Source: a virus (lineage: Duplodnaviria; Caudoviricetes). Taken from it: DNA of 28,437 nt. This document shows positions 11,870-18,671 of the stretch, piece by piece. A program made the translations under genes and the position numbers. The notes beneath the pieces are model-generated. The model did not search any database. It was not told the origin of the DNA and saw nothing but the letters and a program-made list of their open reading frames with translations. Within the stretch, counting starts at the first letter, position 1. Each line of letters opens with the position of its first letter. The DNA is taken from positions 1-28,437 of the IMG/VR virus record IMGVR_UViG_3300032143_000014; one strand, given 5' to 3'.

Positions 11870-12730
11870 ATGGCTAGTGTTACTCCCACTCCCAAAAAAA
11901 TAGCAGATATTAAACTTAACTTACTTCGTCCTGCACTTACCTCTCATTTTGCTGTTACAATTCCAAAACCAATTGGCGGTGACTTTGATAATTTTTTGAA
12001 ATATAATGGTGTTATTTTAAATCAGGGAAAGTTAAATTTAATGTGTTCAGAAGCAACTCTTCCTGGATCTAATTTAGCAACCTTTGAGATTAATGATAAT
12101 TTTCATGGTGTAACAGAAAGACATGCATATAGGAGAGTTTATGATGATCGTATTGATTTAACATTTTATGTTGATGCTGATAACTATCTTCCAATTAGAT
12201 ATTTTGAAACTTGGATGAAGTATATTGTAGACGAAAGTAGAGGAAAACAAACAGATAAAAATGCTGGATCGGAAGATAGGGAATATTTTTATAGAGTTAG
12301 GTATCCTGAGGGAACAAATGGATACACATCAGATGGTCTAACTGTTACAAAATTTGAAAGAGACTACACACAAACATTAGAATATAAGTTTATAAGATCT
12401 TTCCCAATTAGTATCAATTCAATGCCGGTTTCATACGATGCTTCTTCTTTACTTAAGTGTACAGTTTCTATGAGTTATATTAGATATGTTTTAATACAGG
12501 GATCTAATAAAGCAGAACCACAATCTACTACAAAATCTACTGGAGATCCTTCTAGCCCGAATTTTACTGCAACACCACAGCAACTTGCACAGATTAATAC
12601 TCAAGCATTCAATTCTAATATAGATTTAAGTAGTGTTACTGGAAATATCACTCCTGGTGGTGTTCCTTTTAATAGTGCTGGTGCTTCACAAATTGATTTT
12701 GCAACCGCAGCAAACTTAAACCTCTTCTAA
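11870..12730 (+). CDS. Tail tube initiator / tube-like protein (gp54/gp19 family)
   Basis: LMCSEATLPG, IDLTFYVD, YFETWM, FPISINSMPVSY...CTVSMSY tube-fold motifs; divergent from g4. Confidence 0.75.
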   Translation: MASVTPTPKKIADIKLNLLRPALTSHFAVTIPKPIGGDFDNFLKYNGVILNQGKLNLMCSEATLPGSNLATFEINDNFHGVTERHAYRRVYDDRIDLTFYVDADNYLPIRYFETWMKYIVDESRGKQTDKNAGSEDREYFYRVRYPEGTNGYTSDGLTVTKFERDYTQTLEYKFIRSFPISINSMPVSYDASSLLKCTVSMSYIRYVLIQGSNKAEPQSTTKSTGDPSSPNFTATPQQLAQINTQAFNSNIDLSSVTGNITPGGVPFNSAGASQIDFATAANLNLF

Positions 12731-12736
12731 AGACCT

Positions 12737-12744
12737 AATAAATA
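12737..12744 (+). promoter_or_regulatory. T4-type late promoter (AATAAATA)
   Basis: Intergenic, followed by an AGGA RBS and ATG 12772. Confidence 0.75.
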
Positions 12745-12771: not shown

Positions 12772-13491
12772 ATGCCTTTACCAAAAATTGCTACACCAAC
12801 ATATCAACTTGAATTGCCCTCAACTGAAGAGACTATTCAATACAGACCATTTCTAGTTAGAGAAGAAAAACTTTTAGTCATTGCTCTTGAGAGTGAAGAC
12901 ACAAAGCAAATTACCACCGCAATAAAAACAGTAATTAAAAACTGTATCATAACCAAGAATATTAAAGTAGAAACACTTCCTACTTTTGATATTGAATTCT
13001 TGTTCCTTAACATTCGTGGTAAGTCTGTTGGAGAAGAACTAGAAGTTAATATTATTTGCCCTGATGATGGTGAAACTCAAGTTCCTGTAAAAATAGTTCT
13101 TGATGATATTAAGGTTCAGAAAAACGAAACTCACGAGAAAAAAATTAAGATTGATAATTCAGTTATGATGGAAATGAAGTATCCATCACTGGATCAATTC
13201 ATTAAGAATAATTTTGATTTTGAGGGTGGAAATGCTATGGATCAATCTTTTGATCTTATTGCATCTTGCATTGATAAGATTTACACTACAGATGAAGTTT
13301 GGGTTACTTCTGATGTAACAAAAAAAGAAGTTACTGAATTTTTAGATTCAATGAATTCTTCTCAATTCAAAGACATTGAAAAGTTCTTTGAGACAATGCC
13401 TAAACTCTCCCATACCATCAAAGTTAAAAATCCAAAAACAGAAGTTGAAAGTGAAGTTGTTTTAGAAGGGTTAGCAAGTTTTTTCGCATAG
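12772..13491 (+). CDS. g26: Baseplate hub assembly chaperone gp26
   Basis: MPLPKI.TPTY.LELPS, YRPFLVREEK, FDIEFLFLNIRGKSVGE, FFETMPKL, LEGLASFF. Confidence 0.92.
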   Translation: MPLPKIATPTYQLELPSTEETIQYRPFLVREEKLLVIALESEDTKQITTAIKTVIKNCIITKNIKVETLPTFDIEFLFLNIRGKSVGEELEVNIICPDDGETQVPVKIVLDDIKVQKNETHEKKIKIDNSVMMEMKYPSLDQFIKNNFDFEGGNAMDQSFDLIASCIDKIYTTDEVWVTSDVTKKEVTEFLDSMNSSQFKDIEKFFETMPKLSHTIKVKNPKTEVESEVVLEGLASFFA

Positions 13492-13511
13492 GAATGGTCC
13501 ATATGGACCTT
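13464..13511 (+). promoter_or_regulatory. Putative -1 programmed ribosomal frameshift signal (g26/g51)
   Basis: AGAAGGG (13464-13470); T_TTT_TTC (13479-13485) in the g26 frame; hairpin GGTCC-ATAT-GGACC (13496-13509). The -1 frame is open into g51. Confidence 0.7.
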
Positions 13512-13682
13512 GAGAATTATTTTCGTCTGAACTTTTCTTTGATGCAGTATCATAAATATTCATTATGGGAAATTGAAAATATGATTCCCTGGGAAAGAGA
13601 TGTTTATGTTGGACTACTTCAGCAGCATCTTGAAGAGGAAGAGTTAAAACAAAAACAACAGATGAGCAATGCCCGATTCTAA
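13494..13682 (+). CDS. g51: gp51-like baseplate hub assembly catalyst (short; possibly the C-terminal part of a gp26 fusion)
   Basis: NYFRLNFSLMQYHKYSLWEIENMIPWERDVYV.LL motif. Confidence 0.88.
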   Translation: MVHMDLENYFRLNFSLMQYHKYSLWEIENMIPWERDVYVGLLQQHLEEEELKQKQQMSNARF

Positions 13683-15765
13683 CGATTTAAAAAATCTAGA
13701 TTCACAACTCAAAAAAACTTTACTCTCTGCGGAAAGTTTTAAGAAGGGAAGTTTTGTTGATTTTTCTAAAAATATTATCAATGTACAAAAAACAAATATA
13801 AGTCTTATTGGTAGTGTAAGACAACTTGTTGCATCGGTTGCTAACATAGAAAAGATTGCTAATAATAATTCTAGAAAAATTACAAGTCTTAAAAATATAT
13901 CAAAGAGTCAAAGCACAAGAATTAGTGGAGAAAATATCGGTGCTAAACTACCAGGAAGTTCAACATCAAATGTAGAAGATAGTATCACAAAGATTTCTGT
14001 ATCAGTATCTTCTATTGCAGCAATATTAGCAGGTAGAAAAAAAGCACTTGATAATACTACTGCTTTTGATAGAAGAAAAGCAGAACAAGAAAAAAGAGGA
14101 CTTGCTGAAGATAATTTAGAAAAGAAATTTGAAGGATTAAAGTCTGCTGCAGAACAAGTTATATCACCAGTTAAAAGCATACTTGATAGAATAATTGATT
14201 TCTTCGTAACAGTTTTTCTTGGAAGAGTTGTCTATAAACTATTAGGATGGTTTGGTGATAAAAAAAATGCTGATAAGGTAAAGGCAATTGGTAGATTTTT
14301 GGGAGATCACTGGCCCAAACTTCTAGCACTCTACTTAGTTTTTGGAAATGCTTTTGGAAGATTTGCTTTGGGATTAACCAAAGCAGTTGCATCAGGAGCA
14401 ATAAAACTTGGATTTGCGATTGCTAAACTTTTAGCTGCTAAAAAAGTTAAAGGTGCAATGGGTGCTGCTCGATTTTTAGGTGGAGGAAAAGGAAAACTTT
14501 TAGCAGGTGTATTAGGAACTGGTGCTGCTCTTGGTGGAGCATATGCAGTTACTCAAGGACTTAAGGGTAGTGGTGAAGATCAGAAAACACAAAAACTTTC
14601 TGGTGGTGGATATGTAAGGCCAAGATTTCCTGCATTTAAAGGTGGTGGATTTAACTTTAAGGGTATGCTTGGTGGAATGGGGGATATGTTCGGTGGATTT
14701 GTAAGTGGTGAAAAAGGAGTTGATAAAATACCTGCGATGTTAAGTGATGGTGAATTTGTGATGTCTGCGGGAGCAGTGCAGAAGTATGGTGTAGATACTC
14801 TTGAAACAATGAATGCTGCTGGAGGAGGAACAAATAAACCCAAGATGATAAGTGGAACTACTTATGCTGCTGGTGGAGGTGCGATTGGACGCACTGCAAC
14901 TTCCGTAAAACCAACTACACCGACCGCAAAACCATTGACTGCAAACACAAAACTTGCATATAATACTATGAAGTTGCAATTTCCAACAGCTAAACCTTAT
15001 CATATTGCAGGTGCTCTGGCAAACTTTGAGACGGAAGCACCTGGACTCAAACCAAACACATATCAAGATGGTGGAGGTCCTGGTAGAGGCATAGCACAAT
15101 GGGAAACACCAGGAAGGTGGGACACTGCTATGAAAAAATATGGACCAAGTATTATCAATAGTTTGCCGCTACAATTGGATTATGTAAAACACGAAATGGA
15201 TACTGGTAATCCAGATTCCGAAGGAAGTCCTCAACTTCCTTATGGTAGAAATACAAAAAGCACTTGGTTAAATTCAACAAATTTGATTGATGCAACTACG
15301 AATTTTATGAAAGCATATGAGGCTCCTGGAATACCTCATCTTGATAGAAGACTTGCAAATGCTAAAAACATAATGGCATCTATTAACAATTCCAATACTA
15401 AAGTTGGTTCCAGTAAACCAAAACCACAATCACAAAATGTATTTCAACAAATTGGGTCCTCTGTAGCATCTGGTGTTAAAAGTCTTTTTGGTCAACCTGC
15501 ACAGGCTAGTCCTATGCCTTATGAGAAAGGTGGATATGCACCAAAAAGTGCTAGACCAACCTCTCCAATCGGCAGTTCAAAATCAGTATCAAGACCAACA
15601 ATAAAACCATTAACATCACCAAAACCAAGAATCATGTATGTTCCAGCAACACCTTCTCAAGGTGGAGGAGGATATGGTGGTAGTGCATCTACATCGGTTC
15701 CAAGTTTCAGTGCAACAGCACCGGGTGGTAATGCAAAACAAAAAACTCTTGGTGTGACGAGATAA
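13669..15765 (+). CDS. Tape-measure-like / hub protein with phage tail lysozyme (Phage_lysozyme2-like) domain
   Basis: Helical N-terminus, Gly/Ala hydrophobic segment, DKIPAMLSDGEFVM motif seen in tape measures. Lysozyme-like region IAGALANFETE...GRGIAQWE...QLDYVKHE...YEAPG (~14950-15380). Confidence 0.75.
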   Translation: MPDSNDLKNLDSQLKKTLLSAESFKKGSFVDFSKNIINVQKTNISLIGSVRQLVASVANIEKIANNNSRKITSLKNISKSQSTRISGENIGAKLPGSSTSNVEDSITKISVSVSSIAAILAGRKKALDNTTAFDRRKAEQEKRGLAEDNLEKKFEGLKSAAEQVISPVKSILDRIIDFFVTVFLGRVVYKLLGWFGDKKNADKVKAIGRFLGDHWPKLLALYLVFGNAFGRFALGLTKAVASGAIKLGFAIAKLLAAKKVKGAMGAARFLGGGKGKLLAGVLGTGAALGGAYAVTQGLKGSGEDQKTQKLSGGGYVRPRFPAFKGGGFNFKGMLGGMGDMFGGFVSGEKGVDKIPAMLSDGEFVMSAGAVQKYGVDTLETMNAAGGGTNKPKMISGTTYAAGGGAIGRTATSVKPTTPTAKPLTANTKLAYNTMKLQFPTAKPYHIAGALANFETEAPGLKPNTYQDGGGPGRGIAQWETPGRWDTAMKKYGPSIINSLPLQLDYVKHEMDTGNPDSEGSPQLPYGRNTKSTWLNSTNLIDATTNFMKAYEAPGIPHLDRRLANAKNIMASINNSNTKVGSSKPKPQSQNVFQQIGSSVASGVKSLFGQPAQASPMPYEKGGYAPKSARPTSPIGSSKSVSRPTIKPLTSPKPRIMYVPATPSQGGGGYGGSASTSVPSFSATAPGGNAKQKTLGVTR

Positions 15766-15770
15766 AATAA

Positions 15771-18671
15771 ATGGCAATCAACGCAGATAAACTTTTAAAT
15801 AAATCATCAGCAAGACTTGCGATGCAAAAAGCACAGCAAGACAAGATGGTTGGTGGTGGATCTGCTAATATTGTTTTATCAAAAAAATCAATTAAAGGTA
15901 TAGAGGGTATTAAAATAAATGTTATTAAAATAGAAAATATTCTTAAGGGTTCACTTGCACTAGACAAAAAACAACTTGATGATAAAAAGAAAGCAACAAG
16001 TGGAAAGAGAAGGGAGAATATAGAAACAAAATTAGAAACAAAACCAAATGCAGAAAGTGGTAAAGTAAAGATGCCATCTGCTCCAAGAATGGGTATTTTA
16101 GATTTTATTAAAAATTTTATTGGCAATGTTCTTCTGGGATACTTTGCAGTTAGATTGATTAAACATCTTCCAAAAATAATGCCCATCGTTAAATTTTTGG
16201 GCAATGCTGCAGATTTTATTATTGATGTTGGAGGAAAACTCTTAAATGGGTTAGTGACTTTTGTTCAAAAGGGACAAGAAGCACATGATAAAACTCGTGG
16301 ATTTATTAAAAATCTTGGTGGAGAAAACTTTGCAAAAGGATTTGATAAGTTTATAGGTGCAATTGATACTGCACTATTCTTAACAACTGTTCTTGCTGGT
16401 TCCATGGCTATGGAGGCCATGTCTGGTGGAGGAGGAGGTGGTCCTGGTGGTGGAGGTTTAAGAGTTGGTGGTAAGGGAGCAGGAAGAGTCAATACTGCTG
16501 TTGCCAGAAGGTATGCTGATAGATTTGGAAGAGATGCTGCACTTAAAAAATTTGGAGAGGAAGGTGTCAAGTCTTTGGGTGGAAAATATGCAAGGTCTGG
16601 GGCAACAAATCTTGCAAGAAATGCACTTGTTGGGGTTGCTGGTAAAGGTGGAGCAAAAATGGTTCTTGGATTTGCAAGACCTCTACTAAAAAGACTTCCT
16701 ATTATTGGAGCACTAATTGATTTTGGACTTTCGGTTGCTCTTGGAGAAGACCCAGGAAGAGCAGCATTTAAAGCAATTGGTGCAGGACTTCTTGGAACTG
16801 TTGGTGCTGCAATAGGATCACTTGCTTTTGGTTTTGGTGGAATTGTTGGTGGTATTCTTGGGAGTATTGGTGGCGATGCACTTGGTGGAGCACTTTATGA
16901 TACGTTCTTTGGTGGTAAAAAACCACAACAGAAAGGCAAAGTTCAAGGAAGAGCAGGTGGTGGTGTTACAAGAGGTGGTAGATCTCAAGGTAGAGCAAGA
17001 AGAACAATCTCAAAAGGAAAATATAAAAGAGTATTAGCACCACAAAAACCATTAAAAACTGAATTCAAAGATAAAGAAGTTAAAAAGAGAACAGAAGAAC
17101 TTGATAAAACAAAATACTTTGGACCAATTTTAGCAGTTAGTTCAAAGATTATGAACAAAGAAGAACCAACAGATAGGGACTATCAAAATGTTGGACTTGG
17201 AATAAATCTTTTAATTACTAAAGGTATTCAGGATAAACAACTGAAAGGTGGTATTGTTGCTGCATTTGCAAATGGCGGACTTGTTGACCCCGATGTGTTA
17301 TCTGCAGCAGAGACTGGTGGTGATATTAGCAACTGGGTAGCAAAAACATTCCGTGGAGAAATTGAGAGTAATGCTGAAAAGACTTTGAGAATGATGAAAG
17401 AAAAGAGAGATGAGAAAGAAAAAAAAGTACCATCAACAACACCTACTCCTGATGAATTTGAGATTGGACCAGCAGGAACAAGTGGAGATAAACTTACAAT
17501 GGCTAGAAATTTGATGAGAGATTTGGGATTAACAGCAGATCAATCTGCAGGTATTGTTGGAAATATGGCTGCTGAATCTGGTGTTGAAAACGCAAGAGTT
17601 CAAAACAGTCCTCCAGGAACAAAGGGAGTACTTAAAGTTGATGGTAAAACTGGGTATGGAATAGTACAGTGGACATCTATGGGACGGCAGCAATCCCTTG
17701 CTGATTATGCAAAATCTAAAGGTGCTGATTTAAGCAAACCACTTTCAATGGATATTGAGTATCAGTTTTTTCTTAAGGAATTTAAAGGTGAATATGGTCA
17801 TGTCTTGAGTCAAATAAAACAAGCACGAGATGTAAAAACTGCATCAACTATTTTTATGCAACAATATGAAGTTCCTGCAGGACATAAAACAGAAGCAAAA
17901 ATAATGGAAAGATATAATATGTCTAAACCAATTTATGATAAACTTGCGAAAGGTGAAGGAAGAGCAACAGAAGGTCCTGGAACTTACATAGATTCTCCAA
18001 CTAATATTGGAGCAAGTAATATTGTTCAATATATTACCGGAGACACAAACTATAAAGGAGATGGAAAACAATTTTATTATGATCGTGCTGGGCATGGATT
18101 GACCGGAAATTATCATGACCATATTGCCTTTAAAACTATAGCAGATAAAGAAAAAACAAAAAGAGCGTTAGGTGCAGCAAATATTCAAATTGGAAGTGAG
18201 TATAGACAAGGAGACCCTGGATATCATGGTAAAAATTTGGCATTTGATGTTCCAGGTAATCAATGGGGAGGTTCCGGTGCAATTGGACAAAAAGAATTTG
18301 CTGGATCTAAAAAGGTAAGGCAAATTTTAGGAATAGGAGCATTTGCAAAAGGTGGTAGAATTCATAAACCAATCATTGCTTTAATAGGTGAGAAAGGTTC
18401 AGAGTTTGTATTTGATGCTGACACTACCCGCGGGTTAGATAAACTTGCTCCTCAACTTTTAGAAAAATTAAACTTTGCATCAACTAAACCACAACTTGCA
18501 AGTATTCTTCAGTCATATGCTTCTTATGATACAATGTCTCCACAAACAATCGTTGTTCAATCTCCAAGTGCTGCAAGTGGTAGTAGAAATAAAAATAGTT
18601 CCGGTGGAGGTGTTACAGTCATACCGATTCCTGTAGATAACTTTACAGAAATTCTTGCCATGATTGGTTAA
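15771..18671 (+). CDS. Second tape-measure-like protein with Phage_lysozyme2-like domain and putative Zn peptidase
   Basis: Glycine-zipper hydrophobic segment; SAGIVGNMAAESG...GYGIVQWT...YEVPAG (~17490-17950); HDH and H-x6-D motifs; GEKGSEFV motif. Confidence 0.75.
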   Translation: MAINADKLLNKSSARLAMQKAQQDKMVGGGSANIVLSKKSIKGIEGIKINVIKIENILKGSLALDKKQLDDKKKATSGKRRENIETKLETKPNAESGKVKMPSAPRMGILDFIKNFIGNVLLGYFAVRLIKHLPKIMPIVKFLGNAADFIIDVGGKLLNGLVTFVQKGQEAHDKTRGFIKNLGGENFAKGFDKFIGAIDTALFLTTVLAGSMAMEAMSGGGGGGPGGGGLRVGGKGAGRVNTAVARRYADRFGRDAALKKFGEEGVKSLGGKYARSGATNLARNALVGVAGKGGAKMVLGFARPLLKRLPIIGALIDFGLSVALGEDPGRAAFKAIGAGLLGTVGAAIGSLAFGFGGIVGGILGSIGGDALGGALYDTFFGGKKPQQKGKVQGRAGGGVTRGGRSQGRARRTISKGKYKRVLAPQKPLKTEFKDKEVKKRTEELDKTKYFGPILAVSSKIMNKEEPTDRDYQNVGLGINLLITKGIQDKQLKGGIVAAFANGGLVDPDVLSAAETGGDISNWVAKTFRGEIESNAEKTLRMMKEKRDEKEKKVPSTTPTPDEFEIGPAGTSGDKLTMARNLMRDLGLTADQSAGIVGNMAAESGVENARVQNSPPGTKGVLKVDGKTGYGIVQWTSMGRQQSLADYAKSKGADLSKPLSMDIEYQFFLKEFKGEYGHVLSQIKQARDVKTASTIFMQQYEVPAGHKTEAKIMERYNMSKPIYDKLAKGEGRATEGPGTYIDSPTNIGASNIVQYITGDTNYKGDGKQFYYDRAGHGLTGNYHDHIAFKTIADKEKTKRALGAANIQIGSEYRQGDPGYHGKNLAFDVPGNQWGGSGAIGQKEFAGSKKVRQILGIGAFAKGGRIHKPIIALIGEKGSEFVFDADTTRGLDKLAPQLLEKLNFASTKPQLASILQSYASYDTMSPQTIVVQSPSAASGSRNKNSSGGGVTVIPIPVDNFTEILAMIG

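Follow-up and report, generated by a model that had tools for sequence, protein, structure and literature searches.

Gene 26 and the short 'g51' frame as a likely frameshifted pair at the tail-chaperone locus of a T4-like phage related to cyanophages

In T4-like cyanophages g26 is followed by a short frame, 'g51', that may be a gene in its own right or the end of a longer gp26 reached when ribosomes change frame, and a viral record of 28,437 bases (the window, by which we mean the whole stretch of DNA analysed; estimated to be 14% complete) raises this question anew. Among cultured phages, those of Synechococcus come nearest to its gp26 (82.6% identity), and on such nearest cultured matches rests its presumed identity as a cyanophage; most of its best DNA matches come from lake and freshwater metagenomes. 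The first-pass annotation had proposed that cyanophage 'g51' is a frameshift extension, not a stand-alone gene, and the comparative predictions made from this proposal support it at the level of sequence. Thus, a single gene, read in two ways, likely accounts for both g26 and the short frame. The preferred reading, to which we give a probability of about 0.88, is that a minority of ribosomes undergo a tandem -1 slip of two tRNA-Phe at U_UUU_UUC, aided by a Shine-Dalgarno-like (SD-like) site and a stem, which would provide short and long chaperones for tape-measure loading. If this is true, 'gp51', which is counted among the core genes of T4-like cyanophages, is no gene but a longer gp26's C-terminal domain, and the two poorly understood hub chaperones of T4 join the general tape-measure chaperone scheme, a step already taken by Vladimirov et al. 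2022. To this the window locus adds breadth (326 representatives), controls, and candidate stimulators.

The g26 junction and its surroundings

The features of the locus are collected in Table 1. Gene order in the window (tail-tube-like gene, g26, extension, two long ORFs) is likened to the V-G-T-H order of lambda. As first annotated, the pair lies just before tape-measure-like genes, and in the window the placement between tail tube and tape measure is indeed found, with a weak tape-measure assignment, but it is not universal; a long ORF directly follows the pair in 105 of 160 representatives, and in others gp55, a terminator or gp5 follows instead (BUCT-ZZ01, PhiW-14, Kuttervirus). The consecutive long ORFs of the window (13669-15765 and 15771-18671) both have a lysozyme domain (PF18013) together with weak tape-measure matches, and either of the two could be the tape measure of the tail. 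Some 27 nt 5' of the g26 start, at 12737-12744, stands AATAAATA, which we take to resemble a T4-type late-promoter box, and TAAATA also occurs at the same place in loose ends of related contigs.

Table 1. Features of the g26 locus, in window coordinates
Feature	Position	Strand	Remarks
Tail-tube-like gene	11870..12730	+	PHROG45 E 1.4e-34, PF23849 E 3.4e-11; directly 5' of g26
g26, 239 aa, short form (TAC-N; presumed analogue of lambda gpG)	12772..13491	+	PF12322 E 1.7e-74; PHROG150 positions 5-232
SD-like AGAAGGG over Glu-Gly codons	13464..13470	+	ends 8 nt before heptamer; likely 5' stimulator
Slippery heptamer T_TTT_TTC	13479..13485	+	in phase with g26 codons
-1 frame extension ('g51'), 65 codons after slip; predicted TAC-C domain	13485..13682	+	PHROG634 E 3.4e-29, PHROG150 positions 231-281
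g26 stop TAG	13489..13491	+	third codon after P-site Phe codon; equal spacing in 303/326 representatives
5-bp palindromic hairpin GGTCCATATGGACC	13496..13509	+	10-nt spacer after heptamer; possible clade-specific 3' stimulator
Long tape-measure-like ORF with lysozyme domain	13669..15765	+	directly 3' of the pair; weak tape-measure PHROG matches (best E 5.2e-6), PF18013 E 2.2e-17

The gp26 of the window scores 250.6 bits against PF12322 (curated cut-off 24.5), and its gene ends in AGT TTT TTC GCA TAG. The -1 frame stays open between 13455 and a stop at 13680-13682, and a -1 slip on the heptamer gives a predicted product of 303 aa beside the 239-aa gp26; heptamer, phase, stop-free frame and predicted length all agree with the original annotation. 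According to the mechanism that we propose, most ribosomes would stop at TAG 13489 and release gp26, whereas a minority would slip back by one base on U_UUU_UUC, the two tRNA-Phe re-pairing in tandem from UUU/UUC to UUU/UUU, and would go on to make the long form. The heptamer alone is a weak signal, since 45 in-phase X_XXY_YYZ sites occur in the 7185 codons of 18 long plus-strand ORFs of the window, yet of these 45 only that at 13479-13485 leads into a long frame, of 67 codons against 22 for the runner-up, and sits at a gene end. The second codon of the extension (13488-13490) encodes Ile, Leu or Val in nearly all 326 representatives described below and includes the first two bases of the g26 stop, a use that may account for the fixed position of the stop.

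Conservation among relatives and rival explanations

Loci were gathered from IMG/VR, GTDB contigs, and annotated phage records, 529 sequences in all. The extension served as query in one scan only, the other scans using gp26 without its last residues; each large scan contributed the best 80 of up to 600 candidates, and the set is tilted to marine and freshwater relatives. In 527 sequences gp26 lies on the plus strand (two lack it), and of these 22 were truncated, two had no extension (one interrupted by Ns, the other the T4-group phage CC31), and 503 could be scored with an extension profile that was seeded with the window's -1 frame and those of 14 cultured phages and searched in all three frames. 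Clustering of 502 loci at 90, 70 and 50% gp26 identity left 326, 160 and 61 representatives, respectively, whose gp26 identity to the window reaches down to 21%. On 71 loci gp26 was found in bacterial and archaeal genome assemblies, mostly MAGs (e.g., NZ_RMVE01000006.1, 188 kb); these are probably phage contigs binned with cells, and one is in a Nonlabens isolate assembly.

Of the 503 scorable loci, 502 have their extension in the -1 frame, one has it in the +1 frame, and none has it in frame 0 or fused, a constancy that the first-pass annotation had predicted. The one +1 case, phage IME-SM1 (NC_054952.1, locus L167:1718-1726), has five T's; because 14 other Menderavirus records have one more base in this stretch, and Mendera, with six T's, reads GAT TTT TTC GGC TGA, it was rejected as a true exception and is likely a one-T homopolymer error of the record. 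IME-SM1, whose gp26 is annotated about 27 residues too long, was left out of later counts. Also set aside were natural gp26-extension fusions in cyanophage-like relatives. Among 22 candidate single-gene fusions in databases, 20 are in-frame proteins (P0121-P0140), most of them with gp26 sequence, but each is known from one contig only, the junction of several is garbled, and with none of the 503 scorable loci fused they are read as probable indel errors.

The register is equally constant. A conserved T_TTT_TTY had been predicted, and at 90% identity (n=326) the site is T_TTT_TTY in 310 representatives, T_TTT_TTR (TTA/TTG) in six, and N_NTT_TTY in ten; at 50% identity (n=61) the counts are 50, six and five, and without loci from the extension-query scan (n=284) they are 268, six and ten. 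In 304/326 codon 35 after the heptamer encodes a conserved Pro. The motif is kept in KVP40, PhiW-14, phiM7, Aeromonas Assk and Ah1, and BUCT-ZZ01, as well as in S-RIM2, Cr30, RHph_I34, Bakedbeans, and P-SSM2. The T run is conserved at synonymous sites: in-phase T_TTT is found at 316 of 326 junctions versus 12 of 333 internal Phe-Phe pairs of the same genes, for which TTC TTT is the commonest form, and the codon before the terminal Phe-Phe varies (Ser AGT or TCT, Asp GAT, Asn AAT, Thr ACT, Ala GCT, Gly) but has T as its last base. Kuttervirus, Miltonvirus, and Vibrio D506 have G_ATT_TTC, G_GTT_TTC or A_CTT_TTC, with the frame still -1; such N_NTT_TTY sites (10/326) are unable to re-pair fully in the P site, though the -1 frame is kept. 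In Ackermannviridae and kin (L330, L333, L340, L350, L352, L353, L356) an N_NTT_TTC site places an Ile, Val or Leu codon before TTC.

Conservation of the extension begins upstream of any fixed start, as predicted. From codon 4 on the residues are strongly retained (codon 4 Leu/Met 91%, His6 88%, Leu9 97%, Tyr12 86%, Phe17 95% of 326), with Met at codon 4 in only 35% and at codon 7 in 32%, and in 88/326 (29/61) representatives there is no ATG, GTG or TTG either upstream in the open frame or before codon 10. These figures bear on the foremost alternative, namely that g51 is a stand-alone small gene with a start at ATG 13494 or 13503 that is coupled to the g26 stop, and that the two proteins join after synthesis. 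Such coupling would suit ATG 13494 (62 aa), only 2 nt after the stop, as well as ATG 13503, which the first-pass annotation overlooked when it found no well-spaced SD for g51: this second start has AGGA 9 nt upstream and its equivalent is kept in all 113 of the closest distinct junctions. A start of the ATG/GTG/TTG type occurs within nine codons in 234/326 representatives, and GenBank records of cultured phages list a separate CDS. Nevertheless, the alternative leaves the fixed frame, the fixed register and the silent-site T run unexplained, in 88 of the 326 the conserved core is preceded by no common start (several records hence show no CDS), the equivalent of ATG 13494 is missing from 21 of the 113 closest junctions, and T4 gp51 is itself the covalent fusion, so that we consider a stand-alone g51 very improbable. 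Across the family no start within the second frame is conserved, whereas the clade of the window keeps an ATG at codon 7. Separate initiation too is possible in this clade, although initiation on top of the frameshift strikes us as rather unlikely overall. If the frameshift reading holds, the cultured-phage records consulted either annotate the extension as a separate CDS with a false start or miss it. In Kuttervirus rabagast, phiMAM1, and Aeromonas Assk and Ah1 (L329:1335-1502, L330, L164, L335) the -1 extension is conserved and no CDS is annotated, since no early start codon is present there.

A change of frame could also precede translation, if RNA polymerase were to add one U at the T run and so give rise to in-frame fusion mRNAs. 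The signal is a homopolymer and one added U leads to the same frame, but transcriptional slippage normally needs longer runs, and here the run usually counts six T's, Ackermannviridae and kin having only four or five. Moreover, the codon phase of the run is retained, and the SD-like bias described below lies at ribosome spacing. Contigs of two DNA and two RNA runs list no indel at the T run (record 23 of run X9 covers 13377-13800 gap-free), so the run is not an assembly error; for polymerase slippage the two RNA runs are weak counter-evidence, as contigs drop rare variants, and the RNA-run matches share 0.25-0.39 of their words with the window and are contigs of relatives. Taken together, we regard this explanation as extremely improbable. 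Least credible of all is that a conserved Phe-Phe C-terminus in AT-rich genomes brought the T run along as a side effect, with the -1 frame an inherited chance, for although T4 gp26 also ends in Phe-Phe and TTT makes up 72% of Phe codons in these genes (2613/3623), the contrast between junctions and internal pairs given above, the TTC TTT or TTC TTC of T4, CC31 and SQ17, which need no slip, and the six T's kept even in g26 genes with Phe-Leu endings speak against it.

T4 gp51 and other tail assembly chaperones

The reading of g26 and its extension as one slip-joined gene has a counterpart in T4 itself. T4 gp26 (208 aa) and gp51 (249 aa) both pass PF12322, and align with each other in BLASTP (20% identity, E 2e-6). 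As predicted, the fusion matches full-length T4 gp51: a profile of the 160 predicted slip products aligns with gp51 15-246 as one domain (E 7.6e-17 in a two-sequence search), with no gap at the junction, and when the profile is divided, the N-part matches 15-185 and the C-part, i.e. the extension, 209-246 (E 1.8e-8, again in a two-sequence search). PHROG634 is common to the window extension and T4 gp51, and the KVP40 record annotates a small ORF as resembling the C-terminal 40 residues of T4 gp51. T4 gp51 is thus a gp26-like domain plus extension, colinear with the predicted slip product. The difference lies in gene arrangement, for T4 has two divergently placed genes and no T run at the g26 end, whereas the window has one gene and a predicted slip. 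Indeed, g26 of T4, CC31 and SQ17 ends in TTC TTT or TTC TTC, followed by g25, with no slip site at the g26 end of these three T4-group phages. The group of T4 would accordingly have swapped the slip for two paralogous genes, 26 and 51. In the accessible text of a review on T4 (Leiman et al. 2010, PMC3004832) both products are classed as 'hub assembly chaperones', gp51 is described as needed for assembly and absent from the particle, and genetic support is cited for the presence of gp26 in the hub. In one Acinetobacter phage record gp51 is called a 'tape measure protein assembly chaperone'.

Structural comparison adds little more than a hint of a fold link to solved chaperones, and only through a model of low confidence. 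An in-frame database relative, P0122 (301 aa), served as proxy, and its model has a pLDDT of 58.2. With this model Foldseek gave no match in the PDB at E <= 0.001, and 2OB9, the tail assembly chaperone of HK97, came at rank 4 with E 0.85 and a probability of 0.25, the highest among the listed rows. A sequence search of the PDB gave nothing below E 0.12, and an Atlas structure search no usable match, while a structure search of a viral library with the same poor model returned gp26/gp51-like and unnamed proteins.

Pairs of this kind are familiar from lambda (gpG/gpGT) and P2 (gpE/gpE'), where TAC-N and TAC-NC proteins are made by -1 frameshift; Levin in 1993, Christie in 2002 and Xu in 2004 are said to have described the lambda G/GT, the P2 E/E' and the general TAC -1 frameshift. 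The window locus shares with them a short gene with a 3' slippery site, a -1 extension, and a position between tail-tube and tape-measure-like genes. It differs in that no sequence homology is shown, the likeness to the HK97 fold is not significant, and gp26, at about 240 aa, is larger than the HK97 chaperone chain (107 aa). In the lambda model the short chaperone coats the tape measure and the C-terminal portion of the long form recruits the tail tube, and by analogy gp26 would coat the tape measure and the C-terminal portion of the predicted 303-aa form would recruit the tail tube.

For T4-like phages, Vladimirov and colleagues reportedly found the frameshift conserved in several groups, with T4 said to use genes 26 and 51. 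The first-pass annotation knew of no such description for T4-like cyanophages; a TAC frameshift of T4-like phages was already proposed in print in 2022, and the uncultured phage of the window is a further instance. Tail-assembly-chaperone genes of these phages were identified by Vladimirov, Gautam and Davidson (2022, Virology 566:9-15, PMID 34826709, as cited in later papers). Citing this work, the available passages of two later papers name poly-T as a known -1 signal in 'TAC-N genes of T4-like phages' (PMC12846349) and describe some T4-like phages in which the frameshift is replaced by two separate genes, a short one and a long fusion (PMC10885494). According to the former, also as excerpted, Pakpunavirus/Vandenendeviridae and Andersonviridae have a TAC frameshift on GTTTTT. 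There too a myophage chaperone locus carries an unannotated -1 extension, inferred from conservation, with a poly-T signal, but the phage families are others and the motif is GTTTTT. The parts available of PMC12859696, PMC9603447 and PMC11526630 hold general statements or a reference to Vladimirov only and nothing specific, and that of PMC3121705 contains no discussion of a gp26 frameshift. No cyanophage-specific account and no experimental demonstration came up in a literature search whose coverage excluded most subscription journals. The slip itself has been published as a prediction; its control by stimulators may be new.

Candidate stimulators of slippage

Slippage would be stimulated by an SD-like site some 8-10 nt upstream of the heptamer and by a clade-varying stem that starts some 6-11 nt downstream. 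A comparable combination is known from E. coli dnaX, where SD and hairpin stimulate a -1 frameshift, the resemblance in the SD-like site holding at the family level; here, however, the site is a U-rich Phe-Phe site and not A_AAA_AAG, the slip lengthens the protein, and the stimulators are candidates. Both elements in the window were pointed out at the start, and both stand where they were placed, though neither keeps its full weight in this phage.

For the upstream element, pairing to an anti-SD motif is stronger than in synonymous recodings in 245/326 and 47/61 representatives, counts for which p-values are overstated because related sequences are not independent. The bias is limited to stretches whose end lies 1-5 codons upstream of the site (mean -0.7 to -1.3 kcal/mol), and 22 other offsets range from -0.3 to +0.7 kcal/mol. 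Codon choice follows the same pattern: Glu at -5 is GAG in 166/259 cases versus a background of 28%, and GAA GGT, the least SD-like pair, accounts for 63 of 156 internal Glu-Gly pairs but 8 of 258 at the junction. The SD-like site thus appears to be under selection, at the family level only, for in the phage of the window it is weak (-4.6 kcal/mol versus a family mean of -6.4).

On the downstream side, the first 57-nt stretch 3' of the site folds better than its controls (median z -1.54, 82% of 160), with excess 5'-arm pairing at nt 8-16 after the heptamer. This excess fades with distance (-0.29 by +31, +0.12 at +70), and stretches within g26 give -0.39 to +0.02. A single 3' RNA structure for the whole family was rejected, since no shared helix was found among the 306 in-register sequences, whose mutual information contained no helical pattern (best 7-bp excess 0.06). 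As to the palindrome of the window, it is the minimum free energy hairpin and more stable than in synonymous controls (-9.1 versus -3.8 +/- 2.0 kcal/mol), but its z of -0.77 against dinucleotide shuffles (13490-13530) is not significant, and all five pairs are present in 56/92 close relatives and only 62/306 family-wide. It was accordingly dropped as a general stimulator and retained as a possible clade-specific one.

Another stem was found elsewhere. In one clade (42 tips, support 0.986) a 10-bp stem joins nt 7-16 to nt 55-64 after the heptamer in 34 tips; pairing holds in 89.8% of cells, four pairs show changes on both sides, and the score is reached by 0/500 shuffles, with slid controls at 26-43%, figures to be read with the caution that stem and clade were selected from the data used to test them. 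The phage of the window is without this stem.

These elements may be combined into a broader proposal, plausible but held with less than even confidence, in which a dnaX-like SD within the Glu-Gly codons of gp26 and 3' stems built separately in each clade would set the ratio of short to long chaperone outside the group of T4, and Ackermannviridae and kin would slip on the non-canonical N_NTT_TTC. The stems would then include the 5-bp palindrome in the window, a hairpin at nt 6-16/26-36, and the covarying 10-bp stem, which closes a 38-nt loop. This last stem lies wholly within coding sequence, linking Leu-Ser/Cys-His codons to Leu/Met-Ala-Gln codons.
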